Assembly: GCA_965242685.1 (NCBI GenBank)
Contig: OZ251487.1
Span: forward strand, 93,591-157,590
Source: Gammaproteobacteria bacterium
GTDB lineage: Bacteria > Pseudomonadota > Gammaproteobacteria > UBA4575
Length of the DNA: 64,000 nucleotides
Direction: 5' to 3'
Each line of letters opens with the position of its first letter. Position 1 is the stretch's first letter. Positions 8,801 through 44,314 of the stretch are shown in pieces. A program made the position numbers and the translations under genes. A model generated the notes under the pieces. It worked only from the letters and a program-made list of their open reading frames with translations, was not told the origin of the DNA and ran no database searches.

Positions 8801-8994
8801 AAGTGAAATGCTTGGTTTATGCTTTGCTTGGTGTTCTACAGCCAATAGAATACACTTTAATACACTTTCCCCCGCAAACGTAAAGAAAAAAGCCAAATGC
8901 GGGCCACCTGCCAAATGCGGGTCACCTGCTAAATACAATGTTATGTGATCGATTCGGGGTAGTATTATCTCCGGTGATGTATAGAGGTACTTCA

Positions 8995-11235
8995 ATGAAA
9001 ACTCTGGCTATGGGAATGGTGGTGTTCACCGCCACAATATTGTTCAGTTGTGGCGGCGGGGGCGGCGGCGGGGGCGACGGGCCAAACCCTTGTACCGGCA
9101 TCAGGGTCTTCGACGGCTGCCTCTCGCGGCAGGAGTTTGCGGGACGCCAAGCCCCCATCGCCCGTGCGCGCCTTGCAGGCTCCGAGTTTCAGGCGCAATG
9201 GGGCCTGGAGACGATCAACGCACACCGGGCACATGCGGCCCTGGAAGCGAAATATGGCAGGCGGGTAAGGCCTGGGACAGGGGTTACCGTCGGCTTCCTG
9301 GATGATGGTATTGATCGTAATCACCCTGAATTCAGCGGCGTAGCGATCACCGAAACGATCATACAATCGGGAGGCAGTCGCTCACATGGTACTTCGGTTG
9401 CCAGCGTTATTGCCGCACAATCCAACGGCCGGGGCTTTGTCGGTGTCGCACCGGGGGCCGCCATCGAGATGGGGGCGATCAGCTTCGGGATTGCCCCCAC
9501 GTATTATACGCCGATTTCACTGACAAACCTTGCCGCCGCCGATGCAGGCTTTGAAAGAAACTTAAAGACTATGTTTGCTCGTGACGTTGATATTTTGAAT
9601 CTCAGCATTGGGTACTCGGGAATCATAGAGAATTATAGTGAGGGAGACCTTCGCACGTATTTTCCAAAAACGATTGCCGCCCAAGCACAGGCCGGTGCCG
9701 GAGAAAAACGCATCCTGGTCTGGGCTGCCGGTAATCATAATAATGCACTTTGCACGTCGGGCACACCTAATTGCAGCAGCGGCGGGTATATCACTGCAAG
9801 CTCGCCCTCTATAACCGCCGGGTTGGCCGCAAGAATTAGCGAATTGGCTTCGCACTCCATCGCCGTCGTAGCCTTAAATCAAGCCGGCACGATTGCCGGT
9901 TTCTCCAACCGTTGCGGGATTGCACAGAATATCTGCATTGCGGCCCCTGGCGTTGATATTGTGGCTGCCGAGGCCGGAAGTACCGGGTCTAGAACAGTAA
10001 ATGGCACGTCTTTTTCTGCCCCGATGGTAGCGGGCGGCCTAGCCTTGATGAAGCACTTTTTCCGTGGCCAACTCTCAAACACGGAACTGGTTACCCGGCT
10101 TTACGCAACCGCCAACAAAACCGGTATATACAGTAACCGAAGCATCTACGGGCAAGGGCTGATGGATCTCGGCGCCGCCGTCTCTCCCGTGGGCGGTACC
10201 TCGATCACCACGGGCACTCGAGTCGGGGACGCCGGCCACTTCACCCAAATTACCCACTTAACAACGGGGAGCGCCTTCGGCGACGGCCTGTCACGCGCCT
10301 TGGCCGACCGCGAAATTGTGGCGTTTGACTCGTTGGGAAGCCCGTTCTGGTTTGACCTCCCCGCCTTTACCCAAAATCGCACCCCTTCACTGATGAAGCG
10401 GCTCGATGACCTGATGACCCGTAATGAAGACCCGCAACCATGGGCTACACACGAGATACCGCCGGCAGCCGGGATCTATGGCGATCCCCGCAATCGGGGC
10501 ACATACAGGATCAGTCTTTACGAACGTCCGGTCGCGGCCGAAAGCAGCGCATTCAACCTTGCCGAGCAGGTTGTAGCATTTACCTCCAAGGTGCCAAGCG
10601 GCTTTGAAACTATGGTATTCACCACCGCCGGCCTCACTGGCAACAACAACCCCAAGACGGGCGCCATAGCGGCTTGGAGACCCTCGAACGTGCCGTTCGG
10701 AATTCGCCTCGGTTGGCTTGGAGAACGAGAGGCAGTACTGGATTCCATGGCTGACGGGGCATTCGGTCGGTTATCGGGCGACAGCTTCGTGACCGGCCTT
10801 GAAATGAATACCGAATTCAAGGGCTGGCGGCTGGCCGTCGACGCCGAGGTCGGCCTGGTCACATCGGATACATCAGGGGGCGTCATCGCCGACCTGTCGG
10901 ACATGGTGACCAGCGCGTTTTCACTGCGCGCCCATCGGCACTTGACGAGCAGGGACAGGCTCACGTTCTCGCTATCGCAACCGCTGCGGATAGAACGCGG
11001 CTCTGCCGAGCTTGTGTTGCCGGTCGGTCGCACCAAAGACGGCAAAGTACTGCATGAACAGGTCTCTGCACGCCTGACGCCATCCAGCAGACAGATCGAT
11101 CTATCCGTGCGTTGGCAACGGATGAAACTATTCAACGGCAGACTTCGCGCCGAGATCACCGCCTCGCGCAATCCGGGGCACATGGACAAGGGCACCGAGT
11201 TCAGCCTGCTGGCGGGTTGGGAAGCTGCCTTCTAA
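8995..11235 (+). CDS. S8 (subtilisin-like) serine protease lipoprotein with C-terminal autotransporter beta-barrel (NalP-like)
   Basis: Lipobox LFSC followed by a Gly8 linker. Catalytic motifs DDGID, HGTSVAS, GTSFSAPMVAG and AAGNHN. The C-terminal ~300 aa are beta-strand-rich and end in an aromatic residue (...LLAGWEAAF). Start taken at the ATG at 8995 (MKTLAMGMVVF). Confidence 0.8.
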   Translation: MKTLAMGMVVFTATILFSCGGGGGGGGDGPNPCTGIRVFDGCLSRQEFAGRQAPIARARLAGSEFQAQWGLETINAHRAHAALEAKYGRRVRPGTGVTVGFLDDGIDRNHPEFSGVAITETIIQSGGSRSHGTSVASVIAAQSNGRGFVGVAPGAAIEMGAISFGIAPTYYTPISLTNLAAADAGFERNLKTMFARDVDILNLSIGYSGIIENYSEGDLRTYFPKTIAAQAQAGAGEKRILVWAAGNHNNALCTSGTPNCSSGGYITASSPSITAGLAARISELASHSIAVVALNQAGTIAGFSNRCGIAQNICIAAPGVDIVAAEAGSTGSRTVNGTSFSAPMVAGGLALMKHFFRGQLSNTELVTRLYATANKTGIYSNRSIYGQGLMDLGAAVSPVGGTSITTGTRVGDAGHFTQITHLTTGSAFGDGLSRALADREIVAFDSLGSPFWFDLPAFTQNRTPSLMKRLDDLMTRNEDPQPWATHEIPPAAGIYGDPRNRGTYRISLYERPVAAESSAFNLAEQVVAFTSKVPSGFETMVFTTAGLTGNNNPKTGAIAAWRPSNVPFGIRLGWLGEREAVLDSMADGAFGRLSGDSFVTGLEMNTEFKGWRLAVDAEVGLVTSDTSGGVIADLSDMVTSAFSLRAHRHLTSRDRLTFSLSQPLRIERGSAELVLPVGRTKDGKVLHEQVSARLTPSSRQIDLSVRWQRMKLFNGRLRAEITASRNPGHMDKGTEFSLLAGWEAAF

Positions 11236-11449: not shown

Positions 11450-11845
11450 ATGGGCATTACAGAATTGATAGATAAATATGGCGAGGCGGGCGTAGTGTTT
11501 GGCTTTGTGCTGACTTGGATTATTTTCAGTTTCCAAATTAGAGGTATGAAAGGCCGAATTGATGGTATAGAAACCAACATCAATACCCGAATTGATGGTA
11601 TAGAAACCAATATCAATACCCGAATTGATGGTATGGAAACCAATATCAATACAAAGATGGAAGCCATCAACAAAAGCATTGAGAAACACGACACAGAGCA
11701 ACGGGAATTACGTGGTTTAGTGGTGGGCGTAATCCAAAGTATAGGCGACATCAAACAAAGCATAGGCGGGCTTGAAAAAATGATGGCAAGCCAACAACCC
11801 CAGACCGACAGCACACCGGCCGCCGCCACAGCACAGGGCAAATAA
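11450..11845 (+). CDS. small membrane-anchored coiled-coil protein with three 11-aa (33-bp) tandem repeats RIDGIETNINT
   Basis: 131 aa with an N-terminal TM helix (VVFGFVLTWIIFSF). The hendecad repeats are encoded at 11555-11653. Strand is chosen on plausibility; the antisense ORF 11326..11841 looks like a repeat artefact. Confidence 0.4.
   Translation: MGITELIDKYGEAGVVFGFVLTWIIFSFQIRGMKGRIDGIETNINTRIDGIETNINTRIDGMETNINTKMEAINKSIEKHDTEQRELRGLVVGVIQSIGDIKQSIGGLEKMMASQQPQTDSTPAAATAQGK
11555..11653 (+). repeat. 3 x 33-bp tandem repeat (cgaattgatggtatagaaaccaaYatcaataccc)
   Basis: Direct inspection; in-frame within the small CDS. Confidence 0.8.
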
Positions 11846-12101
11846 GTTCCGTTTCTCCCTTCTAATCCGTCCGGATAAATCAGAGCAATACTGAAAACCT
11901 TCGCCGCGGACCGGCCTCGCCCGAGCAGAATCGCGGATTGGTTTTTAGGCGTTCAATATCTGGCAAATTTCGGAGACAAATTTACCCTTTTAGAAATATA
12001 TCCTTCCCGCGAAACAGGGTTCTACCACCCGCAACGGCGGTTGATTTCCAGATCAGGGTAGAACGCGGGTCTGGTTTTTAGGCGTTCAATAGCTAGTGAT
12101 T
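11846..12101. repeat. module-flanking intergenic repeat block (family copy A)
   Basis: Contains tgatttccagatcagggtagaacgcgggtctggtttttaggcgttcaat units and the ggagacaaatttacccttttagaaatatatccttcccgcgaaacagggttctaccacccgcaacgg segment. Both recur at 16138-16497 and 19649-20031. Confidence 0.7.
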
Positions 12102-15100
12102 TCACCACCTGATCACGGCCTGTACGCCGATGCCGTGTTCGGTATCCTCGTCATCGTATTCGAGGCGTTCGCCTTCCAGTTTTAAGGTCAAGGCTTCGGT
12201 AAACTTGTACTCGCTCCCCAGTCGGTAGTGACGCCCTTCGTCCCGCACCCGCAGCCCCAGGTACGGCGTCAGCAGCCCCCGCCTGTGATACAACCCGTAC
12301 CCCAATTCGGTCTCCAACTGCAACGCGGTGTCGGCGGCCTCGTCCTCGTCCTTCAACGCCAGTCCCCGCTCCCACAGTGCGCCGATGCCGCCGCCGGTGG
12401 TGCCCCAACTCGGGATGACGCTAAATCGCAGCCCCCGCCCGTTGGCCGCCGGCAACCATTCCAAAGCCCCGCCAAGCCCCCATTCGTCCAAGTCCCCGCT
12501 ATGCGTCACCAGGTAGCGCCCGTGCGTGCGAAGGCGCAGCCCGCCGTTGCTATAACCAACATCCCCGCCGATCTCGACGCCACTGCCGGTCTCGCCGTCG
12601 CCGCCGTCATAGCGTACCCCCAGCTCCAGGCTCGAGGTCAGGATCGCGCCCGTCTCCAGCACCTGACGACGGCTGCCCTCGGCGGCCAGCCGCAGTCGGT
12701 GGGTGTCGATGGTTATGCCGTCTATACGGTCGCCGTTGTCGTCGATGCGCCACCGCGTGGTCTGTCCCTCGCCCCGAATGGCGATCTTCAGATCATCGCG
12801 TTCATAGACCCGCATACTGCCCCCCGCCGACAAGGTCTTGAGGGTGCTGTCGCTGCGTTGTTTCTCATCGAGATCCTCGTCGTCGATGGTGATCTCGCCC
12901 TCGCCGTAGCCCACCGTCGCCCACATCCGGCTGCCGTCTTCGCCGCTCCAGCCAAGGTACGGATGAATGCTCACCATCTCGCTCTCGTGATCGCCCTTGA
13001 TCGTCTCGCCTTCGCTACTATCTTTATAGTCGATGTCGCTCTCAAACCAGGATACGCTCACGCCGGCGGTCTTGTTTGTGCCCCATTCGGTATCGATCCC
13101 CAAGTGCCACGAGAAGGCATCGCCGTCCCAATCCAGCCAGCCGGTGTCTAACGCCAGATCGCGCCAGTCGCCCGCCCCCCACAAGGTCAGGTTGTTGCCG
13201 AAGGTATCGGCGCCGTTCAACGGCAGCGCAAAGTTTTGTCCGCTCAACGCCTGGCGCCATTTGAAGGTGCCGTCTTCCAATGATTGGGCGTTGCCTTGGA
13301 TTACATTCCCGAACGAGGAGGTCGGCGCCCGCGAACCGCCCCCCGCTCCTTCCAGTCGTTCGCGGATCGCCCGACCCACGCTGTCGGTCAACGCCCGCGC
13401 CAGCTCCGGTACGATCGATTCGTTGATGCGCCGCAGACGCGCCCGTTCCTTGTCCCGCGAGTTCTCGACGGTGATCGCAAACGTCATCATCGCCGTGCCG
13501 CCCACCACTTCCCAGGTGTAGTCGGTCGCCACTTGTTCTTCCGTCGGCGTGCCGCTGATGGTGCGCGTGCCCGCATTCAAACTCAGCCCCACCGGCAAGG
13601 CCGGGCTTAGGGTGTAGTCGACATCGCCGTCCACCAACTCCGGCAGGATCAACGCCGTGATCGGGGTGTTGACGGTATACACTTGATCGGGTATATCGAC
13701 ATAGCCCACCCCAAAGGCTGAAAACACACTCACGGTCGCGCATATCAAGTCGCTCCCGCCCGGATTGGTGCGCAAGGTCGTACCGCTCACGGCCTCCCAT
13801 TCGCCGCGCCCTTCGTCGTAGTGCAACAGCAACAGGGGACGCCCGGTCGCCGCCGTCTCCAGCTCGGCGCTATACGGCAGACAGATCTCTAGCCCGCCAC
13901 TCGGCACGGGGGCGACATCGATGTCGACCACGGTGCCATCGCCCAAGGTGTAGGTGCTGCCGGTCAACGGCACATTCGATGACACCCGACTCAGGGTGAT
14001 CGCCAAATCCTGGCCCAAGGCGGCCGGCGGCGCCACTTCCACCTCTTCGTCCACGCCCTCGGATACCGTCACGGTGACCGCCTGGCCGTTGATCTCGTAG
14101 TTGGTGGTGCCCGCTCTGTGCATGGCGATGCGCCGGTCGGCGCTGCCGCCTTGTACGGTGATGACCACGGCATCCGCCTGCGTGTCTTCGTAGCCGCTGC
14201 CGGTGCCGCTTACGGTGTGACCGATGGTCACGCCCCCCTTGGCGTAGTCGTCGTTGTCGGTCGCCACCGTCGCCGTCACCGTCACCGCGCCGTTCCAGTT
14301 GCCCGTCCCGAACGTGACGCTGCTTACATCGGGGGTGACGGCGGCATCGCCGCTCGTCAGGGTCAGCGTGACATTGGCCGCCGGCTCGGCGTCCAGCACC
14401 ACCGTATAGGTGCCGCTGCCCCCTTCGGCGATGGTCAGTTCGGTCGGCGTCACGGTCACGCCCTTGGTGTCGTCATCGACGGTGCGCACCGCCACGTCTC
14501 GTTGACTCAGCGCGGTGTAGACGCTGTCGCTGCCGGTCGGACTCGCCAACCGCACCGCATAGTCTTGATCGCCATCGTCCACAAAGTCGTCGACGCCGGT
14601 CAGCGTCACCGTCTGCGTACTGTTCCAGTTACTGGCCGTAAACGTCAGACTGGCCGGACTCACCGTCCCCTCGCTGGTGTCGGTGCTGCTCAACGCGATC
14701 ACCACGTTGGCGGTCGGCTCGCTGTCCAGCTCGACATCGAAGGTCGCGGTGCGGCTTGCGCCCGTCGCCTCGGTCACCGTCTCGCGCGGCGTACCCGCGC
14801 CCAAGTCGCTCAGCGTAATGCCGGCCGTGTCATCGTCGGTGGTGGTGACCCCCACGTCAACGTTGGCCAGACCGTTGTAGTTGGCGTCCGCGGTGCTCGC
14901 CGGATCAAGGGTGATGTCGTAGTTCTGATCGCCATCGTCAATGCTATCGTTCGCCCCGGTCACCGTCACCGTCTGATCGCTGTTCCAGTTAGAGGGCGTG
15001 AACGTCATACTGCTCGGACTGACCGTACCTTCGCCAGTGTCGGTGCTGCTGACCGCCACCGTTACGTTGGCCGTCGGCTGGGTGTTGAGTTTGACGGTGA

Positions 15101-15722
15101 ACGTCGAGGTGACCCCCGCCTCGGTCGCCTGGCCGGTGACCGCGCCGACGCCGAGGGTAGGCGACTCGTCGTCCAGGATCGTCAGCGTGGCGGTCGTGAC
15201 GGCGGTATGACCTTTTTCCCAATAAAAAGATGTATCACCTGCATCGTCACCAGGAAACTCCGCCGACACCGTCACCGTCCGGGTGCCGTCCACGTTTCCG
15301 TTGTCGGGAATCATGAGCGTCACCACCCCGTTCTCGGGCCGCGTAAGAGTGATTGTACCGGCGTTAGGTCTGTTATACCTCAGCCGCACATTGGTGCTCA
15401 GCGAGGCGCCGCCGGCGTTGGTGGGAGTCGATACGACAATATCAAAATATGCAAGGGCATTTAGGTGCGATGCTTTCGGATTGTATTGGCAATTGTGAAT
15501 CGTCCCGGTGCAAAGGATGTTAACGGGGACGGTCGCCGCCTGGCCCTCGGTGACGGTAAGCGAACTGGCGCGTTCCGCGCCCAACTCTATCCTGAAACTA
15601 TGGTGCTGGCCGGAGCCGGCATGCGCCCCCGCCGTACCCGCCGTCAGCAGTAGCGGTGCGGCCACAGAAACGCCGGCCAAAAGTCGGCGTACAAGGCGAT
15701 TGCGGAAAAGGCCAAGCACCAT
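12102..15722 (-). CDS. giant surface protein: signal peptide, tandem ~100-aa beta-sandwich (Calx-beta/cadherin-like) repeats, C-terminal autotransporter-type beta-barrel
   Basis: 1206 aa. Signal peptide LLAGVSVAAPLLLTAGTAGAHA. Repeated TANVTV..SSTDT.EGTVSP.S.TFT.SNWN..QTVTVTG.DD..DDGDQ.Y units. C-terminus ...GIGVQAVIRW. Paralogous to 16498..19164 and 20032..22353. Confidence 0.8.
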   Translation of the reverse strand: MVLGLFRNRLVRRLLAGVSVAAPLLLTAGTAGAHAGSGQHHSFRIELGAERASSLTVTEGQAATVPVNILCTGTIHNCQYNPKASHLNALAYFDIVVSTPTNAGGASLSTNVRLRYNRPNAGTITLTRPENGVVTLMIPDNGNVDGTRTVTVSAEFPGDDAGDTSFYWEKGHTAVTTATLTILDDESPTLGVGAVTGQATEAGVTSTFTVKLNTQPTANVTVAVSSTDTGEGTVSPSSMTFTPSNWNSDQTVTVTGANDSIDDGDQNYDITLDPASTADANYNGLANVDVGVTTTDDDTAGITLSDLGAGTPRETVTEATGASRTATFDVELDSEPTANVVIALSSTDTSEGTVSPASLTFTASNWNSTQTVTLTGVDDFVDDGDQDYAVRLASPTGSDSVYTALSQRDVAVRTVDDDTKGVTVTPTELTIAEGGSGTYTVVLDAEPAANVTLTLTSGDAAVTPDVSSVTFGTGNWNGAVTVTATVATDNDDYAKGGVTIGHTVSGTGSGYEDTQADAVVITVQGGSADRRIAMHRAGTTNYEINGQAVTVTVSEGVDEEVEVAPPAALGQDLAITLSRVSSNVPLTGSTYTLGDGTVVDIDVAPVPSGGLEICLPYSAELETAATGRPLLLLHYDEGRGEWEAVSGTTLRTNPGGSDLICATVSVFSAFGVGYVDIPDQVYTVNTPITALILPELVDGDVDYTLSPALPVGLSLNAGTRTISGTPTEEQVATDYTWEVVGGTAMMTFAITVENSRDKERARLRRINESIVPELARALTDSVGRAIRERLEGAGGGSRAPTSSFGNVIQGNAQSLEDGTFKWRQALSGQNFALPLNGADTFGNNLTLWGAGDWRDLALDTGWLDWDGDAFSWHLGIDTEWGTNKTAGVSVSWFESDIDYKDSSEGETIKGDHESEMVSIHPYLGWSGEDGSRMWATVGYGEGEITIDDEDLDEKQRSDSTLKTLSAGGSMRVYERDDLKIAIRGEGQTTRWRIDDNGDRIDGITIDTHRLRLAAEGSRRQVLETGAILTSSLELGVRYDGGDGETGSGVEIGGDVGYSNGGLRLRTHGRYLVTHSGDLDEWGLGGALEWLPAANGRGLRFSVIPSWGTTGGGIGALWERGLALKDEDEAADTALQLETELGYGLYHRRGLLTPYLGLRVRDEGRHYRLGSEYKFTEALTLKLEGERLEYDDEDTEHGIGVQAVIRW

Positions 15723-15741
15723 TGTACCTATGGTAAATCGC

Positions 15742-15755
15742 GGGGGGGGGGGGGG
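15742..15755. repeat. homopolymeric G14 tract (C14 on the coding strand), 19 nt upstream of the giant-protein start
   Basis: Counted directly. Conserved flanks aaatcgc-Gn-atattg are shared with the tracts at 19230 and 22419. Confidence 0.9.
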
Positions 15756-15780
15756 ATATTGGCATGATCATCCTAACTTT

Positions 15781-16137
15781 TCAGAAAAACAGGAGTTTGC
15801 CCACTATTAGCAGGGTAAGGCCCAAGTTCAACCCGATTGCCCATTGAAGCCAGGTCTGACCGATTTGGAGTTTGTCAATATCTGCCTTAAGCTCTTGTTT
15901 CAGTGCTTTATTATCTGCCTTAAGCTCTTGTCTCAGTGCTTTATTATCCGCCTTAAGCTCTTGTCTCAGTGCTTTATTATCCGCCTTAAGCTCTTGTCTC
16001 AGTGCTTCAAGATCTGTCTTGGTGGCTACTTCCGCGTCGGGGTGTTTGAACGTATCCACAATCACCCGCGCCTGCGCCTCCGGCATGTCGGCGGCGGTCA
16101 ATTTCCTGATGGCCTCGGCGGTGTCTATTGCATACAT
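15781..16137 (-). CDS. DUF1640-like tail-anchored coiled-coil protein (paralog A; 4 copies of the 33-bp repeat)
   Basis: 118 aa. Conserved N-domain MYAIDTAEAIRKLTAADMPEAQARVIVDTFKHPDAEVATKTD, then LRQELKADNKA hendecad repeats and a C-terminal TM helix (WAIGLNLGLTLLIVGKLLFF). Family assignment is from memory. Confidence 0.55.
   Translation of the reverse strand: MYAIDTAEAIRKLTAADMPEAQARVIVDTFKHPDAEVATKTDLEALRQELKADNKALRQELKADNKALRQELKADNKALKQELKADIDKLQIGQTWLQWAIGLNLGLTLLIVGKLLFF
15883..16014. repeat. 4 x 33-bp tandem repeat (gccttaagctcttgtYtcagtgctttattatcY)
   Basis: Direct inspection; encodes KALRQELKADN on the minus strand. Confidence 0.85.
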
Positions 16138-16497
16138 GGCTTTATCCTAAACGCCCACATCATAGCGAAGTTCAAGCGTCATTGGAATAAGCCACTATAT
16201 CCTAGATTATTCCCAAAGATAAATAGAGTGCCTAGTTGATCTCGACAGGGCGGTTTCTAGGCTTTCAATATCTGGTGATTTTCGATTTTCGGCGGTTAAA
16301 AATACCGCCTACAAGGGAGATAAAATCACCCTTTTAGGAATATATCCTTCCCGGAAATAGGGTTCTACCACCCGCAACGGCTGGTGGTTTTTTGATCAGA
16401 GTAGAATTGTAGATTGGTTATCTAGGCGTGCTATATACTGTTGATTCCAGATCAGAAGGCCGTAGATCGGTTTTTAGGCGTTCGATGGCGGGTGATT
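16138..16497. repeat. module-flanking intergenic repeat block (family copy B), including a hairpin + T6 terminator-like element
   Basis: accacc-N10-ggtggt followed by tttttt, and ccagatcag...gatcggtttttagg units. Homologous to blocks A and C. Confidence 0.65.
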
Positions 16498-19164
16498 TCA
16501 CCACCTATACTCGACGGTTACGCCGATGCCGTGTTCGGTGTCGGCACGGTCTTGCTCCAGACGTTCGCATTCGGTGTTCAGCGTCAGGGTTTCACGTAAC
16601 TTGAAACGTCCGCCCAACCGATAGTGACGCCCTTCGTCCCGCACGCTCATCCCCAAGTACGGCGTCAGCAGTCCGCCGATATGATGCCGTCCGTAGCCGA
16701 TCTCGCCGTCCAGCTTTAGACTGCTGTCCGGGTCTTCTTCGTCTTCCTCGTATAATGCCGCCCCCGCCTTCCACAACCGCTGTAGACCGCTCTCGGCGGT
16801 CCCCCAGGTCGGCGTCAGGGTGATGTGTAGACCTCGCCCATCGGTCATCGCCCTGTATACCAGCGATACGTTCGCGCCCCATTCATCGTAATCCGAATTC
16901 GCCACCAGCGTCCGCGCGCCCGCCGTCAGACCCAACCGGCCCGACCCGTAGTCTACGCCCACGCCCACTTCCGCACCACTGCCGGTGTCGCCATCGCCGC
17001 CGTCATAACGCACGCCCAGTTCAAATCTTGGCAATAACCGCGCGCCCGATGCCAGGATTTTCTCCTGCCTTGCCTCTACCGCCACCCGCAAGCGTGTTGC
17101 GTCCGACTTCTGTCGTTGAATGCCATCGCCGTTGTCGTCCACTTCGAAATCCGCATACATCGCCTCGCCCCGCAGCGAGACCTCGGTGCCATTGGCCGCG
17201 TACAACGGCCCCCGCGCCCCGGCCGAGGCCATTCGCATGTCGGCGTCCGACTTCTGACGCTGCCCGCCGGCGACGATCTCTAAATCGCCACTGCCAACGC
17301 CCGCCATCGCCCATAGGCTGATGCCGCCCGGCGTGATCCATCCCAAATAGGGTTGCGCACTGGTCATCTCCAGCTCCCACTTGCCCTTTTGACCCTGGTG
17401 TCCGTAATCTAATTTCGCCTCCGACCAGGTGGCCGCCAGCCCCACACGCAGACCGTTTGCCAGCAATCGATCCGCCCCCAGGTGGGCGCTGGTCACGTCG
17501 CCGTCCCACTTCACGCCGCGCGCCTCGCCATCGAGATCGCGGTAGTCGCCGCCGCCCCACAAGACGATGTCGCCACCGCCGCCCGCGTCATTCCCGTCCA
17601 GCGACAAGGCAAACGCCGCCTGCGGCAGCAGGTGTCGTTTCCAGTCTAATTCCCCGTCTTCCTGCATAGCCGACCCGTGTCGCATCAGCCGTTCCAAGTT
17701 TACGTTTTCCGTCAGCGAGGGTGATGGTGATGTCGGTGCCCCGCCCAAATCCGCCCGCTCGAGACGTTGACGCACCGCCGTCGCGCGGCTGTCCGCCATC
17801 GCCCGCGCCACTTCCGGCAGCAGTACTTCCGTCACCTCATCCCCCGCGCCGTCGTTGTCGGTGTTGGTTACCAACACCGTCACATCCGCCAGCGCGGCAT
17901 AGCGGGCATCGGAACTGCTCGGGTCCAGTCGCACCGCACAGGTCGCGCCGACATCGCTCACCATGTCGTCCACGCCCCGCACCGTCACGGTCTGCGGGGT
18001 GTTCCATAACCTTACCTGTGCGTCCGGGTCTTCGTCTGCGGCACTGAGCACGAACGTCAACGTCCCGCTCTCGCCGGCGGCAATGTAGGTCATGCCGCCG
18101 TCCACCGACACTTCGCACTCGTCGCCGTCTTGGCTTGAAACATCCACCGCCGAATCCACCTGCGGGATGGTCGACAGCCGCACCGTGAACGTGTCCGTGC
18201 CGCCATCCTCCGTGACTACGGTCGAACCGCCGCTCTCAACCACCGTCAGCCCCACTTCGTCGTCTTCGGTCATCACCTCGACGGTCTCCGTCGCCAGAGT
18301 GTTGTAATTGGTATCGCCGCTACTGCTCGGATCCAGCTCGATGTTGTAGCTCTGCGTGCCGTCTTGAATGGTGTCGTCGACGCCGGTCACGGTGACCGTC
18401 TGGGTGCTGTTCCAGTTGCTGTTCGTGAACGTCAGACTGGTCGGACTCGGCGTGCCCTCGCCGGGGTCGGCACTGCTCACCGCCACCGTTACGTTGGCGG
18501 TCGGCTGCGACGCCAGCCTGACGGTGAAGGTCGCCGTCTGCGCGGTGTTGCCTTCATTTGCCGTGCCGGTCACGGCACTCGTCCTGATCCCCGGCGTGTC
18601 TTCGTCCAGAATCGTCAGTGTGGCGGACTGGATAAAGACTTCTGGTACGTCGGAAATCTCCACAAAGTAATTCTGATCCGTACCATAAGTCCTAGGCGCC
18701 CCCGCTATGTTCACCGTCCGGTCTCCGTCCATAGCCGTATTGCCGGCAATCGTGAGCGTTACCGTCCCCGAAGTGTTCGAGCCTAAGGTATTCGAGCCTG
18801 CATTTATGGTAAACCCTAAGTGCTGACCCGTCTGCGTGATGCCGCCGGCGCCGCTGGGAGTCGGAGTCCCTGCGGTGATGGTAATACCGTTTCTGTTGTT
18901 TCGATTCTGGTCGGGATATCCATTCTGTTGGCAAGAAGCAGTTCCACCACCATGTGAGGTGCAGCGGACGGTGACGGCGACGGTCGCCGCCTGGCCCTCC
19001 GTGACGGTCAACGTGCTTGCCCCGTTCAACAACACCTCGAAGTGCAAATGACGGTTCGTCCCTATGTTATGCGCCCCCGCCGTACCCGCCGCAAGCAACA
19101 GCGACACAGATAGCAACGCCGCCGAAAGGCGGTGTGCAAGGCTATGGCGAAGTCCACGCATCAT
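16498..19164 (-). CDS. giant surface protein, paralog 2 (signal peptide, beta-sandwich repeats, C-terminal beta-barrel)
   Basis: The ORF-track start at 19305 reads through the poly-G tract (PPPPP). Start moved to MMRGLRHSLAHRLSAALLSVSLLLAAGTAGA (ATG at 19162-19164), matching paralog 3. C-terminus ...GIGVTVEYRW. Confidence 0.8.
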   Translation of the reverse strand: MMRGLRHSLAHRLSAALLSVSLLLAAGTAGAHNIGTNRHLHFEVLLNGASTLTVTEGQAATVAVTVRCTSHGGGTASCQQNGYPDQNRNNRNGITITAGTPTPSGAGGITQTGQHLGFTINAGSNTLGSNTSGTVTLTIAGNTAMDGDRTVNIAGAPRTYGTDQNYFVEISDVPEVFIQSATLTILDEDTPGIRTSAVTGTANEGNTAQTATFTVRLASQPTANVTVAVSSADPGEGTPSPTSLTFTNSNWNSTQTVTVTGVDDTIQDGTQSYNIELDPSSSGDTNYNTLATETVEVMTEDDEVGLTVVESGGSTVVTEDGGTDTFTVRLSTIPQVDSAVDVSSQDGDECEVSVDGGMTYIAAGESGTLTFVLSAADEDPDAQVRLWNTPQTVTVRGVDDMVSDVGATCAVRLDPSSSDARYAALADVTVLVTNTDNDGAGDEVTEVLLPEVARAMADSRATAVRQRLERADLGGAPTSPSPSLTENVNLERLMRHGSAMQEDGELDWKRHLLPQAAFALSLDGNDAGGGGDIVLWGGGDYRDLDGEARGVKWDGDVTSAHLGADRLLANGLRVGLAATWSEAKLDYGHQGQKGKWELEMTSAQPYLGWITPGGISLWAMAGVGSGDLEIVAGGQRQKSDADMRMASAGARGPLYAANGTEVSLRGEAMYADFEVDDNGDGIQRQKSDATRLRVAVEARQEKILASGARLLPRFELGVRYDGGDGDTGSGAEVGVGVDYGSGRLGLTAGARTLVANSDYDEWGANVSLVYRAMTDGRGLHITLTPTWGTAESGLQRLWKAGAALYEEDEEDPDSSLKLDGEIGYGRHHIGGLLTPYLGMSVRDEGRHYRLGGRFKLRETLTLNTECERLEQDRADTEHGIGVTVEYRW

Positions 19165-19229
19165 TAGTAATTTGCGGTGGCCGCCGAACCTCCTACGGTC
19201 TGCGCGGGATGTGGTAATTACAAATCGCG

Positions 19230-19244
19230 GGGGGGGGGGGGGGG
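19230..19244. repeat. homopolymeric G15 tract, 65 nt upstream of the paralog-2 start codon
   Basis: Counted directly; same conserved flanks as tract 1. Confidence 0.9.
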
Positions 19245-19333
19245 CAATATGTCGTTTCATCGGAGGCTGCTCCACGTGAGTTTGTCCTGTAATTCCCGCG
19301 TACAATAATACGTATAGTTATATCGGCGTTCAA

Positions 19334-19648
19334 TCAAAAAAATACGAGTTTGAGCACGATTAGCAGAGTAAAGCTTAAATTCGCCCCGATTGCCCATTTG
19401 ATCCATTTTAACTCTGTTCTAAACTCTGCTCTAAGCTCTCCAATATCCGCCTTAAACTCTTGTCTCAGTGCTTTATTATCTGCCTTAAGCTCTTGTTTCA
19501 GCCCGTTGATACTTGTCTCAAGATCTGTCTTGGTGGCTACTTCCGCGTCGGGGTGTTTGAACGTATCCACAATCACGCGCGCCTGCGCCTCCGGCATGTC
19601 GGCGGCGGTCAATTTCCTGATGGCCTCGGCGGTGTCTATTGCATACAT
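19334..19648 (-). CDS. DUF1640-like tail-anchored coiled-coil protein (paralog B; about 2 repeat copies)
   Basis: 104 aa; same N-domain and C-terminal TM helix as paralog A. 33-bp repeats at 19449-19514. Confidence 0.55.
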   Translation of the reverse strand: MYAIDTAEAIRKLTAADMPEAQARVIVDTFKHPDAEVATKTDLETSINGLKQELKADNKALRQEFKADIGELRAEFRTELKWIKWAIGANLSFTLLIVLKLVFF

Positions 19649-20031
19649 AACTTTATCCTAAACGCCCAACATTCTAGCGAAGTTCGGGCGTCATTGGAAT
19701 AAGCCACTATATCCTAGCTATTCCCAAAGATAAATAGAGTGTCTAGTTGATCTCGACAGGTCAGTTTTTAGGCTTTCAATGGCTGTTGATTTCCAGATTA
19801 GAGTAAAACCGCGGATCGGTTTTTAGGCGTTTAATATCTGGTAATTTTCGGAGACAAAATCCCCCTTTTAGAAATATATCCTTCCCGCGAAACAGGGTTC
19901 TACCACCCGCAACGGCTGGTGATTTCCAGATCAGGGTAGAACGCGGGTCTGGTTTTTAGGCGTTCGATGGCTGCTAATTTCAGATCAGAAGGCCGTAGAT
20001 CGGTTATCTAGGCGTGCTATATCTGTTGATT
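19649..20031. repeat. module-flanking intergenic repeat block (family copy C)
   Basis: Two tgatttccagatYagRgtaRaaccgcggRtcKgtttttaggcgttYaat units plus the conserved ggagacaaaatcccccttttagaaatat... segment. Confidence 0.7.
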
Positions 20032-22353
20032 TCACCACCTGTATTCAACCGTTACGCCGATGCCGTGTTCGGTGTCGGCACGGTCTTGCTCCAGGCGTTC
20101 GCATTCGGTGTTCAGCGTCAGGGTTTCACGTAACTTGAAACGTCCGCCCAACCGATAGTGTCGCCCTTCGTCCCGCACGCTCATCCCCAAATACGGCGTC
20201 AGTAGTCCGCCGACATGATGCCGTCCGTAGCCGATCTCGCCATCCAGCTTTAGACTGCTGTCCGGGTCTTCTTCGTCTTCCTCGTATAAGGCGGTCCCCG
20301 CCTTCCACAACCGTTGCAGGCCGCTCTCGGCGGTCCCCCAGGTCGGCGTCAGGGTGATGTGCAGACCCCGTCCGTCGGTCATCGCCCGATAGACCAGCGA
20401 TACGTTGGCGCCCCATTCATCGTAATCGGAATTCGCCACCAGCGTCCGCGCACCCGCCGTCAGACCCAATCGGCCCGACCCGTAGTCTACGCCCACGCCT
20501 ACTTCCGCACCGCTACCGGTCTCGCCATCGCCGCCGTCATAACGCATGCCCAACTCAAATCTCGGTAATAACCGCGCCCCCGATGCCAGGATTTTCTCCT
20601 GCCTTGCCTCTACCGCCACCCGCAAGCGCGTGGCGTCCGATTTCTGTCGTTGAATGCTATCGCCGTTGTCGTCCACTTCGAAATCCGCATACATCGCCTC
20701 GCCGCGTAGCGATACTTCTGTTCCATTGGCCGCATACAACGGCCCGCGCGCACCGGCCGAGGCCATCCGCATGTCGGCGTCCGATTTCTGACGCTGCCCG
20801 CCGGTGACCACCTCTAGATCGCCGCTACCGACGCCCGCCATCGCCCATAGGGAAATACCGCCCGGCGAGGTCCATCCCAAATAGGGTTGCGCACTGGTCA
20901 TCTCCAGCTCCCACTTGCCCTTTTGACCTTGGTGTCCGTAGTCGAGTTTGGCCTCCGACCACGTCGCCGCCAGGCCTACGCGCAGACCGTTTGGCAACAG
21001 CCGATCCGCCCCCAGGTGGGCGCTGGTCACGTCGCCGTCCCACTTCACGCCGCGCGCCTCGCCATCGAGATCGCGGTAGTCGCCGCCGCCCCATAAGACG
21101 ATGTCGCTACCCATGCCCTCGTCATCGTCCAGCGACAGCGCAAACGCCGCCTGCGGCAGCAGGTGTCGTTTCCAGTCTAATTCCTCGTCCTCTTGCATAG
21201 CCGACCCGTGTCGCATCAGCCGTTCCAAGTTTAAGTTTTCCGTCAGCGAGGGTGATGGTGATGTCGGTGCCCCGCCCAAATCCGCCCGCTCGAGACGTTG
21301 ACGCACCGCCGTCGCGCGGCTGTCCGCCATCGCCCGCGCCACTTCCGGCAGCAGTACTTCCGTCACTTCTCCCGTGCCGTCGTTGTCCGTGTTGGTGACC
21401 AACACTGTGGTGCGCGCTATCGCCATCGCGTATTGGGCATCGGAACTGCTCGGGTCCAGTCGCACCGCACAGGTCGCGCCGACATCGCTCACCATGTCGT
21501 CCACGCCCCGCACCGTCACGGTCTGCGGGGTGTTCCACAAACTCGTCTGTGCGCTGAGCAGGTCGCTCGGGTCGGAGCCATCGGGCAGGAACGTCAACGG
21601 CCCGCCAACACCGGCGGCGAGATACGTCATGCCGCCATCCAGCGACACTTCGCACTCGTCGCCGTCTTGGCTTGAAACATCCACCGCCACCGCCGCCTGC
21701 GGGTTGGTCGGCAGCCGCACCGTGAACGTGTCCGTGCCGCCATCCTCCGTGACTACGGTCGAACCGCCGCTCTCGGTTACCGTCAGCCGCGTGTCATCGT
21801 CCAGGATCGTCAACGTGGCGGACGCTACGATCGGTGCGATGTCATATCTACTTTGGAACCAAGATCCGTATGCCTGGCCCGGCAGCTGCGTCGCGTAATA
21901 CCCCTCCGCGTTCACCGTCACGGTCCGACGTCCGTCCATAGCCGGATTGCCGTCAATCGTGAGCGTTGCCCCGGTATTGGTCGTGCCGAGGTTTATATTG
22001 GTGGTAGGTAGGGTATTATACCGCGCCTGCGGATTGGCGTTCAGCGTGACGCCGCCGCCACTGGCGGGGGCCGTGGCACTGACGGTGAAGTAGGCGCTGT
22101 TGCGCCGAGGCAGCTCGGAGAAACCGGTGATACTGGTGCAGTGGGCCGTGCAACGGACTCTGGCGGTGACGGTCGCCGCCTGGTCCTCCGTGACGGTCAA
22201 CGTGCTCGCCCCGTTCAACTCCACCTGAAAGTGCGCATGGATGGTACTACCCCTACCATCCGCCCCCGCCGTACCCGCCGCAAGCAGTAGCGACACAAAC
22301 AGCAACGCCGCCGAAAGGCGGTGTGCAAGGCTATGGCGAAGTCCACGCATCAT
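20032..22353 (-). CDS. giant surface protein, paralog 3 (signal peptide, beta-sandwich repeats, C-terminal beta-barrel)
   Basis: 773 aa. The C-terminal ~450 aa are nearly identical to paralog 2 (same ...LLPEVARAMADSRATAVRQRLERADLGGAPTSPSPSLTEN... through GIGVTVEYRW). Confidence 0.8.
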   Translation of the reverse strand: MMRGLRHSLAHRLSAALLFVSLLLAAGTAGADGRGSTIHAHFQVELNGASTLTVTEDQAATVTARVRCTAHCTSITGFSELPRRNSAYFTVSATAPASGGGVTLNANPQARYNTLPTTNINLGTTNTGATLTIDGNPAMDGRRTVTVNAEGYYATQLPGQAYGSWFQSRYDIAPIVASATLTILDDDTRLTVTESGGSTVVTEDGGTDTFTVRLPTNPQAAVAVDVSSQDGDECEVSLDGGMTYLAAGVGGPLTFLPDGSDPSDLLSAQTSLWNTPQTVTVRGVDDMVSDVGATCAVRLDPSSSDAQYAMAIARTTVLVTNTDNDGTGEVTEVLLPEVARAMADSRATAVRQRLERADLGGAPTSPSPSLTENLNLERLMRHGSAMQEDEELDWKRHLLPQAAFALSLDDDEGMGSDIVLWGGGDYRDLDGEARGVKWDGDVTSAHLGADRLLPNGLRVGLAATWSEAKLDYGHQGQKGKWELEMTSAQPYLGWTSPGGISLWAMAGVGSGDLEVVTGGQRQKSDADMRMASAGARGPLYAANGTEVSLRGEAMYADFEVDDNGDSIQRQKSDATRLRVAVEARQEKILASGARLLPRFELGMRYDGGDGETGSGAEVGVGVDYGSGRLGLTAGARTLVANSDYDEWGANVSLVYRAMTDGRGLHITLTPTWGTAESGLQRLWKAGTALYEEDEEDPDSSLKLDGEIGYGRHHVGGLLTPYLGMSVRDEGRHYRLGGRFKLRETLTLNTECERLEQDRADTEHGIGVTVEYRW

Positions 22354-22418
22354 TAGTAATTTGCGGTGGCCGCCGAACCTCCTACGGTCTGCGCGGGATG
22401 TGGTAATTACAAAATCGC

Positions 22419-22435
22419 GGGGGGGGGGGGGGGGG
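22419..22435. repeat. homopolymeric G17 tract, 65 nt upstream of the paralog-3 start codon
   Basis: Counted directly; same flanks (aaaatcgc-G17-caatatgtcg). Confidence 0.9.
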
Positions 22436-22527
22436 CAATATGTCGTTTCATCGGCGGCTGCTCCACGTGAGTTTGTCCTGTAATTCTCGCATACAATAAT
22501 ACACTAGTTATAATATCAGCGGTTCAA

Positions 22528-22797
22528 TCAAAAAAATACGAGTTTGAGCACGATTAGCAGAGTAAAGCTTAAATTCGCCCCGATTGCCCATTTGATCCAT
22601 TTTAACTCTGTTCTAAACTCTGCTCTAAGCTCTCCAATATCCGCCTTAAACTCTTGTCTCAGCCCTTCAATATCTGTCTTGGTGGCTACTTCCGCGTCGG
22701 GATGTTTGATCGTATCCACGATTACGCGCGCCTGCGCCTCCGGCATGTCGGCGGCGGTTAGCTTCCTGATGGTGTCGGCGGTGTCTATTGCATACAT
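22528..22797 (-). CDS. DUF1640-like tail-anchored coiled-coil protein (paralog C; about 1 repeat copy)
   Basis: 89 aa, MYAIDTADTIRKL...; C-terminal TM helix. Confidence 0.5.
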   Translation of the reverse strand: MYAIDTADTIRKLTAADMPEAQARVIVDTIKHPDAEVATKTDIEGLRQEFKADIGELRAEFRTELKWIKWAIGANLSFTLLIVLKLVFF

Positions 22798-22798
22798 G

Positions 22799-23200
22799 TT
22801 AGAAAAACAGGAGTTTGCCCACTATTAGCAGGGTAAGGCCCAAGTTCAACCCGATTGCCCATTGAAGCCAGGTCTGACCGATTTGGAGTTTGTCAATATC
22901 TGCCTTAAGCTCTTGTCTCAGTGCTTTATTATCTGCCTTAAGCTCTTGTCTCAGCGCTTTATTATCCGCCTTAAGCTCTTGTCTCAGCTCTTTGATATCT
23001 GCCTTAAGCTCTTGTCTCAGTGCTTTATTATCCGCCTTAAGCTCTTGTTTCAGTCCGTTGATACTTGTCTCAATATCTGTCTTGGTGGCTACTTCCGCGT
23101 CGGGGTGTTTGAACGTATCCACAATCACCCGCGCCTGCGCCTCCGGCATATCGGCGGCGGTCAATTTCCTGATGGCTTCGGCGGTGTCTATTGCATACAT
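22799..23200 (-). CDS. DUF1640-like tail-anchored coiled-coil protein (paralog D; about 5 repeat copies)
   Basis: 133 aa. 33-bp repeats at 22902-23066 encode five ELKAD units. Confidence 0.55.
   Translation of the reverse strand: MYAIDTAEAIRKLTAADMPEAQARVIVDTFKHPDAEVATKTDIETSINGLKQELKADNKALRQELKADIKELRQELKADNKALRQELKADNKALRQELKADIDKLQIGQTWLQWAIGLNLGLTLLIVGKLLFF
22902..23066. repeat. about 5 x 33-bp tandem repeat
   Basis: Direct inspection. Confidence 0.85.
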
Positions 23201-23524
23201 GACTTTACCCTAAACTCCCTCATTGTAGCGAAGTTCAAGCGTCATTGGAATAAGTCGAGGTGGCCGCCGGCGATAAAACACGTAATCTGCTAATTTCCAA
23301 CACGGCATTTCCATTTATTTTGCCTGTCAATATCATATAGGACGGGGTTTGTGGAGTTAAAGATTCACGTACAGGCGAAGGTTATATCGCAGGCAACGTC
23401 TTGAGTAAAAATGGTACAATTTGCTTGCACCCGTTCTTGTTTGGAAAATATAGGTACGTATTATTCGTTTAAGCATTTCGTTCGCGTGCGATGTCTTGAA
23501 ACTTTTTGGCAACGAGGGCCAGTC

Positions 23525-43617: not shown

Positions 43618-44047
43618 CCGGGAGTTGGCCAGGCAGTCGCTTCCCCGCTTGTGGGCACACGGGACGGGGAAGAGGAAAGTCCGGGCTTTTTGGGCGAGGC
43701 GCCAGGTAATGCCTGGAGGACGTGAGTTCATGGAAAGTGCAACAGAAAGTAAACCGCCCGACCACCCGGTACAACAGTCAGCCTCGTTTTTTGTAAAATC
43801 ACGTAAGGCTGATTGAAGGGACGGTCGGGTAAGGGTGAAATGGTGTGGTAAGAGCACACCGCTCAACCGGTAACGGTTGTGGCTAGGTAAACCCCGCCTA
43901 AAGCAAGACCAAATAGGGGAGTACGGAACTATGTTCCGGCACATGGCCCGTGTGGGCTCCCGGGTAGGTCGCTTGAGGTTTGTGGTGACACAAATCCCAG
44001 ATGAATGACTGCCCCCGACAGAACCCGGCTTATCGGCCGACTCCCGG
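43618..44047 (+). ncRNA. rnpB: RNase P RNA, bacterial type A
   Basis: Conserved blocks GGAAAGTCCGGGCT, AGGGTGAAATGGTGTGGTAAGAGCACACC, CCAAATAGGGGAGTACGG and ACAGAACCCGGCTTATCGGCC. Terminal P1 pairing ccgggagttggcc/ggccgactcccgg. Confidence 0.85.
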
Positions 44048-44314
44048 CCTATATGAATGCTGACTGTCCCCCTTAGTTATCCATCAACCTGACCGAAATC
44101 CATCAGCCTGACCCAAAGGACAAGGTCAAGGCACACTTGATTAATAAAACAAGTAAATAGCGCGATATTTTTAATGTAAAAAATAATATTATTTATTTAA
44201 CTATATAAATAGAAAAAGATATTATTTGTTTTTACATGGCCTCAGATATGGAATATCAAGGCCATGATCCTTCCGAAATCCTACATATTTTCTGGTTTTT
44301 CCCTTGAATTTTGC

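Follow-up and report, generated by a model that had tools for sequence, protein, structure and literature searches.

Three duplicated modules of DUF1640-like small genes, poly-C tracts and autotransporter-like genes in a probable sponge-associated gammaproteobacterium: a candidate translational phase switch

Whether long homopolymeric tracts switch a family of large surface proteins on and off, and what role is played by the small membrane-anchored proteins encoded beside them, is the question raised by a stretch of 64,000 nucleotides (nt) of contig OZ251487.1 (GCA_965242685.1, Gammaproteobacteria UBA4575), which is referred to in its full length as the window. On its minus strand, three modules follow one another, each consisting of one or two small genes, a poly-C tract (C14, C16 or C17) and a gene for an autotransporter-like protein of 773-1206 amino acids (aa). 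The original prediction had described three such units with two small genes in the third of them, and all of these elements are present. The explanation favored here, to which a probability of roughly 65% is assigned, is that of three duplicated operon-like units in which the tract would act as a translational switch of the large gene, the small protein being loosely linked to it. The source organism is probably a sponge-associated gammaproteobacterium.

The three tracts are the only G/C runs of at least 8 bases in the window. By simple arithmetic, ~0.001 runs of at least 14 bases are expected by chance at the composition of the window; given this expectation and the homologous positions of all three, the tracts are not chance products. 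In each module, an ATG with a Shine-Dalgarno sequence (AGGA or GGAG) is located 12-16 nt upstream of the tract, whereas the annotated downstream ATGs (MMRGL/MVLGL) of all three modules have no Shine-Dalgarno sequence at a usable distance. The start region reads AGGATGATCATG in module 1, encoding MIMPIS-Pn, and GGAGCAGCC(T/G)CCGATG in modules 2 and 3, encoding MKRHIA-Pn. With its C16, module 2 is read from the upstream ATG as MKRHIAPPPPPRFVITTSRADRRRFGGHRKLLMMRGL.. and on into the signal peptide, which corresponds to an ON state. Module 1 is out of frame at C14 (OFF) and would be ON at C13 or C16, and module 3 is likewise OFF at C17, with a stop four codons past the tract, and would be ON at C15 or C18. 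Both are one step from an ON tract length. The tract thus appears to be placed so that a change in its length would alter the expression of the big gene, and the claim of the original prediction that the tracts are positioned for length-dependent switching is borne out by this frame analysis as well as by the related contig described next. Most likely, the tracts represent ordinary slipped-strand translational phase variation, a mechanism known from NalP and MspA.

On that related contig (L087), two small genes are followed by GTGATCATGCCTATATCCCCCCTCACA.., i.e., by the same start as in module 1 (MIMPIS) but with only C6. Translation from this start continues without interruption into the signal peptide MPISPLTHRLLAALLSVPLWLAAGTAGA.., and the same start was chosen by an independent gene call. 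The in-frame start at C6 therefore indicates that the upstream ATG is the real start and that the tract has expanded within the coding sequence. When one genome per species was scanned with closely related beta-domain sequences, 79 loci of the same family emerged in Ca. Porisulfidus, Thermohalobaculum, Nitrospinales, Nitrospirales, Azotimanducaceae, Binatia, Poriferihabitaceae, Spongiihabitans, Marinacidobacterales and others, most of them in metagenome-assembled genomes with names or isolate codes pointing to sponges, as judged from titles. Ca. Porisulfidus, which is mentioned in a sponge genome note, features nine copies of the family in a genome of 1.88 Mb. Among the loci with a visible 5' end, tracts were found in Gammaproteobacteria, Alphaproteobacteria, Nitrospirales and, less clearly, Nitrospinales, with lengths of up to 30 bases: C25, C28 and C30 plus a C9 in Thermohalobaculum (L016, L017, L021), C12-C22 in Azotimanducaceae, C18 and C26 in Nitrospirales, and G10-G13 in Ca. 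Porisulfidus, plus two C12 in its locus L088. In homologs from Azotimanducaceae and Nitrospirales, runs of C12-C26 are situated in the middle of the signal peptide (MNKIIRPFVFASALLLAISV-Pn-ISWINTAHAQ), and both ON and OFF copies are present. The signal-peptide and tract sequences of L033, L052 and L055 (Azotimanducaceae) are nearly identical to those of L058 and L070 (Nitrospirales), which reflects either recent horizontal transfer across phyla or a binning error. The only direct hint of tract instability is a difference in length between Ca. Porisulfidus-like loci, with G10 in L006 and G11 in L002 and L011 between flanks that are ~97% identical.

The leaders of Ca. Porisulfidus (L002, L003, L004/L007, L006, L009-L013) show another layout, with GAATAC-G(10-13)-CTAAAA ~70 nt before the annotated ATG. 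Here, the tract is embedded in a short upstream open reading frame (ORF), CTAAAA gives a stop in one frame just past the tract, and the upstream ORF ends in an ATGA that overlaps the main start in another frame. In between, these leaders contain two invariant GC hairpins, GCGCGCCGG-loop-CCGGCGCGC and CGGCCG-ttc-CGGCCG, with loops that vary between copies. The arrangement looks like phase-variable translational coupling via the upstream ORF. Simple in-frame switching as a family-wide rule was accordingly rejected, as the loci of Ca. Porisulfidus and Thermohalobaculum better fit such a coupling. Tracts are also found at other genes: a relative with ~54% GC (L001) features a C10 (8475-8484) placed precisely between TTGAAT and TATGAT in front of a type III mod gene, and in addition a C17 (5911-5927) upstream of a gene for a 536-aa lipoprotein-like protein. 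A literature search revealed no paper on phase variation in sponge symbionts.

The modules themselves (Table 1) are evidently recent paralogs. A promoter element of ~55 bp is common to all three, in which TTCCAA-17-TA..AT, with TATGAT, TAGAAT or TACAAT as -10 element, is followed by a Shine-Dalgarno sequence. All small genes agree almost completely in their first 135 bases, and the last 113 residues of big2 and big3 are 98% identical, with 57% identity of big1 to both. As the modules are paralogs, their threefold repetition represents one invention that was copied and not three independent observations. The copied unit also takes in ~190 bp of conserved sequence 3' of each big gene (11915-12101, 16290-16497 and 19790-20031 in the window, and 1-290 in L005), which is made up of ~50-bp sub-repeats containing ACGCCTA(A/G)A(A/T)AACC plus a short GC hairpin. 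With at most two mismatches, the sub-repeat ACGCCTARAWAACC has nine matches in the window, where 1.5 would be expected, and seven of the nine are inside the three flanks. Of the conserved upstream region of ~100 bp formerly ascribed to each module, the ~55 bp named above hold true, while the longer similarity between modules 1 and 2 belongs to the 3' flank of the preceding big gene. These flanks have neither an Rfam match nor a terminator-like T run, and since RNase P is the only Rfam match in the window, their conservation is not explained by a known RNA. Likewise, no terminator-like site was found in the gaps between small and big genes, the one in module 1 spanning 9 nt. In module 3, small3a starts 1 nt past the stop of small3b and has no promoter of its own. 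The GC content of the autotransporter genes (60-63%) differs from that of the surrounding housekeeping genes mlaC, murA and hisG (52-56%), which suggests their horizontal acquisition from a high-GC donor, e.g., a lineage like Ca. Porisulfidus with 73% GC.

Regarding the big proteins, big2 and big3 exceed the gathering score of 26 of the Pfam family Autotransporter (PF03797) with 40.7 and 42.5 bits, respectively; big1 falls short of E 0.01 on its own sequence and was assigned via the identity of its last 113 residues. All three feature a Sec-type signal peptide by inspection, which ends in ..AAGTAGA (written ..RLSAALLSVSLLLAAGTAGA and ..VAAPLLLTAGTAGA, each before an H), and all end in RW, i.e., with a C-terminal aromatic W. 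For the C-terminal 456 residues of big3, an AlphaFold model (22 homologs, pLDDT 71.7) predicts a long helix and a subsequent beta barrel, the fold that is expected of a type Va translocator. Compared to type Va autotransporters such as EstA, AIDA-I, Hbp, EspP, NalP and BrkA, the conserved C-terminal region is longer (~440 vs. ~280 aa), the model contains ~18 long strands according to DSSP instead of 12, with low confidence in the last third (pLDDT of ~33-66 for residues 300-400; Foldseek TM-scores of only 0.3-0.5), and the passenger is built of Calx-beta-like sandwiches instead of a beta helix. These sandwiches form repeats of ~110 residues, as seen from multiple offset BLAST segments. Single passenger repeats match the Calx-beta profile PF03160 at positions 20-118 of 119 with 22.0 and 15.5 bits (E 1.7e-4 and 0.018), under the cut-off of 27, and the homologs P0112, P0115 and P0125 as well as the giant protein of L088 carry a Calx-beta annotation; hence, only the label "Calx-beta-like" is used. 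Thus, the autotransporter part of the earlier description stands, with PF03797 above threshold for two of the three proteins, whereas the Calx-beta part stays below the cut-off.

The small proteins combine a nearly invariant N-terminus of 45 aa, tandem repeats of 11 aa (33 bp) and a hydrophobic C-terminal anchor. The repeats amount to 3.9 copies at 97% in small1 and 4.8 copies at 90% in small3b (22897-23054). Their matches to PF07798 (CCDC90-like/DUF1640) start at profile positions 1-2 and reach E-values in the range of 1e-5 to 1e-7 (9.9e-7 to 6.1e-5; 1.6e-5 for small3b and 9.9e-7 for small3a) at 23-29 bits, i.e., below the gathering cut-off of 33.5 bits. Precomputed annotation assigns PF07798 to P0001-P0003, which correspond to small3b, a paralog elsewhere in the genome and small1; besides P0002, the small paralogs elsewhere in the source genome include P0006 and P0008. 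The neck VATKTD is invariant in all close relatives and fits [aliphatic]-A-T-K-[polar]-[D/E], the beta-layer consensus with which the stalk of DUF1640 proteins begins (eLife 2016, PMC4786415). Moreover, the head MYAIDTAEAIRKLTAADMPEAQARVIVDT aligns with canonical DUF1640 heads (..FDT..L...L..AG....QA.A..), the window scores from a custom head profile being circular, as this profile contained family members. Neck and stalk match PDB 6H9L at E 4.3e-7, which is the best match to a solved structure, and phrog_17872 is matched at E 1e-9; small1 and small3a match phage protein families of unknown function (PHROG). Taken together, the neck and these matches support the formerly proposed DUF1640-like nature in spite of the low Pfam scores. 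The proposed variability of length was also found, with stalks of 9-75 residues and two anchor types among 21 close relatives, and the hypervariability of the stalk among paralogs and alleles is thus real. Many alleles are located on very short contigs, as is typical of repeats. The small-gene family had no match in the genome-contig collection or in JGI metagenomes and seems to be confined to ENA and Logan assemblies.

The last ~23 residues of the small proteins are hydrophobic and run to the C-terminal end, forming a single predicted transmembrane (TM) anchor, and a signal peptide is missing. From these two features it follows that head and stalk should face the cytoplasm; the mitochondrial DUF1640 relatives are matrix-facing in the same way. 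Judging from the family, the small proteins would form homotrimers. The original prediction had considered a periplasmic spacer or ruler, which was rejected on account of this predicted topology. Two other identities were tried and dismissed as well: a component of a defense system, as the small proteins have no PADLOC match, and a holin, for which the sole hint is one PHROG match at E 0.008, too weak to be used.

The co-occurrence of both gene types in other genomes, which the original prediction had named as its own test, was found at L005, L087, L088, L004/L006, L059 and L036, where a small gene adjoins an autotransporter gene. In L005, two identical small genes are directly followed by a family member with 42% identity in the passenger. 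The small-gene subfamily of Ca. Porisulfidus (73% GC) was found at two places, both beside autotransporter genes: three copies are situated 218 bp downstream of a 1350-aa family member in L004/L007, and further copies occur in the syntenic L006 on another contig of the same sample. In L088, four tandem small copies precede a TGTATAAT promoter, the two C12 tracts and a 3719-aa Calx-beta member, which is the architecture of the window in a very distant genome. Two hendecad-rich DUF1640-like genes are located 271 bp downstream of a family member in L059 (Azotimanducaceae), and L036 (Spongiihabitans) features one small gene in convergent orientation at a distance of ~70 bp. Nevertheless, a DUF1640-like ORF is present within the flanks of ~4 kb at only four of the 79 autotransporter loci, one of them (L017) 2.2 kb off, and is missing from the other 75. 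The same applies to seven of the nine Ca. Porisulfidus loci fetched (L007-L015), and the high-GC loci L002 and L003 have no small gene beside the autotransporter gene either. Conversely, small genes occur in other surroundings. A type III mod gene in L001 (8546-12554) is split by an insertion of ~950 bp that carries a small gene of the window type together with an 87-aa ORF, with positions 1-204 of the PADLOC model PDLC03646 matching the N-terminal part and 349-1025 the C-terminal part, and a second small gene is found in the interval from mod to res. The small gene of L086 comes after AbiJ, with antitoxin and Res also adjacent. A dedicated one-to-one partnership, as it had been suggested earlier, is not supported by these distributions. 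Besides, methyltransferases of the N6_N4 or D12 class and NotI-like endonucleases are encoded near clusters of autotransporter and small genes (L088, 4594-6512; L003, 21697-23531), and the Ca. Porisulfidus regions that combine restriction-modification systems with such clusters appear to be variable islands. In sum, the association of small and big genes recurs in four lineages and, in our reading, is non-random without being obligatory.

Several points weigh against a translational switch with a loosely linked, cytoplasm-facing small protein. The tract lengths in the window originate from one assembled copy per locus and differ between the paralogs (14, 16 and 17); since an assembly may miscount a homopolymer by one base, the assignment of ON and OFF states is preliminary. 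The open extension of 32 codons in modules 2 and 3 is not significant in itself. Independent initiation at the downstream ATGs might make the switch leaky, and transcriptional slippage on long runs could likewise do so. The position of the Ca. Porisulfidus tract in an upstream ORF, and not in a simple fusion frame, implies a mechanism that is not uniform across the family. Furthermore, the cytoplasmic topology, probable as it is, was deduced from the missing signal peptide and from the eukaryotic relatives. At least for modules 2 and 3, a promoter-spacer reading is also conceivable (TTGCCC .. TGTAAT), according to which the tracts would tune transcription and not the frame: TTGCCC stands at the start of the tract, TGTAAT follows 6-7 nt past it, and the C10 of L001 indicates that the lineage uses spacer tracts as well. 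This alternative is regarded as improbable, since the spacers would be too long (19-21 nt), a -35-like element is missing from module 1, module 2 has a better promoter (TTGAAC-17-TATTAT) upstream of its tract, Shine-Dalgarno sequences accompany the upstream and not the annotated ATGs, and the tract is intragenic in L087 and in the Azotimanducaceae homologs. Even less credit, to the point of near dismissal, is given to the view that the homopolymers are sequencing or assembly errors or that the big ORFs are decaying pseudogenes. Although long G/C runs are prone to sequencing error and only module 2 is in frame with its upstream ATG, tracts occur at a homologous position in many independent assemblies and phyla, within megabase contigs, and the large ORFs are intact for 773-1206 codons.

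While these considerations leave the translational switch as the preferred reading of the tracts, the relation between small and big genes allows for different explanations. The small protein could be a dedicated partner, i.e., an inner-membrane factor for docking, holding or timing of a long precursor with an extended signal peptide, its stalk being tuned to the partner. Direct and usually co-oriented adjacency in four lineages of very different GC content and sequence (window, Ca. Porisulfidus, Azotimanducaceae, Spongiihabitans) speaks for it, as do both Ca. Porisulfidus sites of the small subfamily and the gap of only 9-20 nt in module 1 and L087, which suggests translational coupling. Still, such a specific partnership seems doubtful in view of the 75 autotransporter loci and the seven Ca. 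Porisulfidus loci without a small gene nearby, the occurrence of the small family without an autotransporter in restriction-modification and Abi islands, its varying position relative to the autotransporter (upstream, downstream or convergent), the related proteins in phage families and a predicted cytoplasmic topology that excludes contact with the passenger in the periplasm or on the surface. A somewhat better, though less than even, chance is granted to a mere co-residence of promiscuous, recombination-prone and possibly phage-borne or mobile cassettes, which would gather in hypervariable islands and give at most a promoter to their neighbors. In line with this are the split mod gene of L001, the small genes by AbiJ, antitoxin and Res in L086 and, in L088, the restriction-modification system that immediately precedes the small-gene array. 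Copies that are tandem, truncated or hybrid (L004, L088, L087, module 3), the many alleles on very short contigs and the 5' ends of the paralogs, whose near identity at the DNA level suggests gene conversion, point in the same direction, and every small gene has its own conserved promoter (for small3a, see above). On the other hand, adjacency to the same family in four distant lineages would be hard to achieve by chance if copy numbers are low, and the surroundings of the small genes showed no sign of a transposase, an integrase or terminal repeats. Looser or unanticipated relations between small and big genes take the remainder of the probability.

The tracts find their closest parallel in NalP and MspA of Neisseria meningitidis, phase-variable autotransporters with a homopolymeric C/G tract in the coding sequence and frame-based ON/OFF switching (PMC3723659). 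Hence, the earlier statement that the tract does not correspond to any described system is not supported; autotransporter-type surface protein, intragenic C/G tract and, as proposed here, switching via the frame are shared, and a poly-C/G switch of autotransporters is classical. Unlike in NalP and MspA, the tracts of the window are longer (14-17 bases, up to 30 in relatives) and occupy the very 5' end of the gene, either ahead of the signal peptide or within it, the family comprises multiple copies arranged in tandem, a small DUF1640 gene is located upstream, and the organism is an apparent sponge symbiont and not a human pathogen. Contingency loci with slipped-strand mispairing at homopolymeric tracts are also described for Bordetella (PMC1891110), the Campylobacter phasome (PMC6321876) and Neisseria (PMC5320596). 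Like these, the present family and its relatives show G/C runs either early in the coding sequence or in the promoter, at genes for surface proteins and for restriction-modification, including the mod promoter and the lipoprotein gene of L001; unlike these, one barrel family carries tracts across several phyla, and the tract of Ca. Porisulfidus lies in an upstream ORF with ATGA overlap.

Chlamydial Pmp autotransporters likewise form a multi-copy family, one gene of which, pmpG, contains a poly-G tract. They share with the window a paralogous autotransporter family, a host-associated bacterium and homopolymer-based variation, but differ in their passenger repeats and have no DUF1640 neighbor. 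For the small proteins, the DUF1640/CCDC90B/MCUR1 family was reportedly characterized as a head-neck-stalk-anchor family by Adlakha et al. (in Structure, 2019), and we know of no function of its bacterial members. Common features are the small N-terminal head, the beta-layer neck, the coiled-coil stalk and the C-terminal membrane anchor (PMC4786415). In contrast, a Pfam score below the cut-off, near-perfect 11-residue stalk repeats that span 9-75 residues in close relatives and the link to autotransporter genes set the small proteins of the window apart. The abandoned idea of a ruler resembles Braun's lipoprotein Lpp, a trimeric coiled coil that acts as periplasmic ruler and whose length matters. 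Lpp is exported and attached to the outer membrane by a lipid anchor, whereas the small proteins, without signal peptide and with a C-terminal anchor, should be cytoplasmic.

According to the proposed explanation, a sigma-70-type promoter would drive one or two small genes per unit. Their product would consist of an N-terminal head of ~35 aa, the beta-layer neck (VATKTD), a coiled-coil stalk of 11-residue repeats and the C-terminal TM anchor, with head and stalk facing the cytoplasm. The big gene starts directly downstream without a terminator and would be co-transcribed with the small gene; its product would comprise a Sec signal peptide, Calx-beta-like sandwiches and, after a linker helix, a C-terminal barrel in the outer membrane with W as the last residue. 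Translation of the big gene would begin at the ATG upstream of the annotated one, with C14-C17 a few codons in, and slipped-strand mispairing at replication would alter the run length and shift the start in or out of frame with the signal peptide. With module 2 ON and modules 1 and 3 OFF as assembled, cell lineages may display changing subsets of surface proteins. Additionally, the 33-bp repeats would let the stalk length vary by recombination or slippage. As a best guess, the small protein may serve as a cytoplasm-facing accessory or scaffold of the inner membrane that is loosely linked to the autotransporter family. Actual switching, co-transcription and the topology and role of the small protein are what we infer from sequence.

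Table 1. Coordinates and characteristics of the module features in the window.
Feature	Position	Strand	Description
Promoter-like element of small3b	23222..23250	-	TTCCAA, 17 nt, TACAAT
small3b	22799..23200	-	133 aa; DUF1640-like head-neck-stalk-anchor; type A anchor (..KLQIGQTWLQW..GKLLFF)
small3a	22528..22797	-	89 aa; DUF1640-like; type B anchor (..ELKWIKW..LKLVFF)
Upstream ATG of big3	22449..22451	-	MKRHIA..; GGAG 9 nt before
Poly-C tract, module 3	22419..22435	-	C17 (G17 on plus strand); codons 6 onward of the upstream-initiated frame
big3	20032..22353	-	773 aa from MMRGL; signal peptide, Calx-beta-like repeats, helix, autotransporter beta domain
big3/small2 intergenic region	19649..20031	-	Conserved 3' flank of big3 with ~50-bp sub-repeats (ACGCCTARAWAACC), then small2 promoter
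small2 promoter	19671-19699	-	TTCCAA-17-TAGAAT
small2	19334..19648	-	104 aa; DUF1640-like; type B anchor
Promoter-like TTGAAC-17-TATTAT	19305..19333	-	Overlaps small2 stop codon; upstream of big2 start
Upstream ATG of big2	19258..19260	-	Reads MKRHIAPPPPPRFVITTSRADRRRFGGHRKLL-MMRGL..
Poly-C tract, module 2	19229..19244	-	C16 (G16 on plus strand); in frame with big2
big2	16498..19164	-	888 aa from MMRGL, 920 aa from upstream ATG; ORF open to 19305; autotransporter-like
big2/small1 intergenic region	16138..16497	-	Conserved 3' flank of big2 with sub-repeats, then small1 promoter
small1 promoter	16159-16187	-	TTCCAA-17-TATGAT
small1	15781..16137	-	118 aa; DUF1640-like; type A anchor; 3.9 x 33-bp repeats (15879-16007)
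Upstream start of big1	15763..15771	-	ATGATCATG = MIM-PIS..; 9 nt past small1 stop; AGGA = Shine-Dalgarno; homologous start in L087
Poly-C tract, module 1	15742..15755	-	C14 (G14 on plus strand)
big1	12102..15722	-	1206 aa from MVLGL; signal peptide, at least 3 Calx-beta-like repeats of ~110 aa, He_PIG Ig domain, autotransporter-like beta domain
Conserved 3' flank of big1	11915..12101	-	Same sequence as behind big2 and big3

Just outside the cluster, positions 8938-11235 of the plus strand encode an S8 subtilase of 765 aa with a lipoprotein-type signal (..LFSC), a Gly8 linker and a C-terminal domain of ~330 aa that ends in ..GWEAAF. This layout recalls the autotransporter-processing lipoprotein proteases NalP and SphB1. 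The S8 peptidase was considered as an autotransporter of the same type and rejected, as its C-terminus reached an hhalign probability of 0.1% against the beta-domain profile of the cluster. Convergent on big1, a 131-aa ORF (11450-11845, plus strand) features an N-terminal TM segment, three perfect-looking 33-bp repeats (RIDGIETNINT; 11554-11652) and a coiled coil; it represents a second kind of membrane-anchored hendecad protein, with the anchor at the opposite end from that of the DUF1640-like genes. The RNase P RNA mentioned above belongs to the bacterial class A (43621-44048, plus strand; 324.6 bits).

Slippery-repeat phase variation counts as a characteristic trait of vertebrate pathogens and commensals that are adapted to their hosts. 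Its mechanism is already well known; the setting in an apparent sponge symbiont and the broad phylogenetic spread are new, and the link of DUF1640 to autotransporter genes is potentially so. The findings suggest that symbionts of sponges, hosts from one of the earliest-branching animal groups, use stochastic surface switching. The switched proteins would moreover share their domain type, Calx-beta, with the aggregation and allorecognition factor of the sponge itself, which consists of Calx-beta arrays (PMC11670116). To our knowledge, the linkage to autotransporters provides the first contextual clue to the function of bacterial DUF1640 proteins. Their eukaryotic relatives are MCUR1 and CCDC90B. 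In a bolder version, which we consider unlikely at present, the DUF1640 proteins would be genuine accessory factors of giant, tract-switched Calx-beta autotransporters that spread horizontally among sponge symbionts, acting from the inner membrane on targeting or secretion of the precursor with a stalk of tunable length. If true, this would give bacterial DUF1640 proteins their first functional context, and the pair would provide a variable surface display by which the symbionts may manage recognition by their sponge host.

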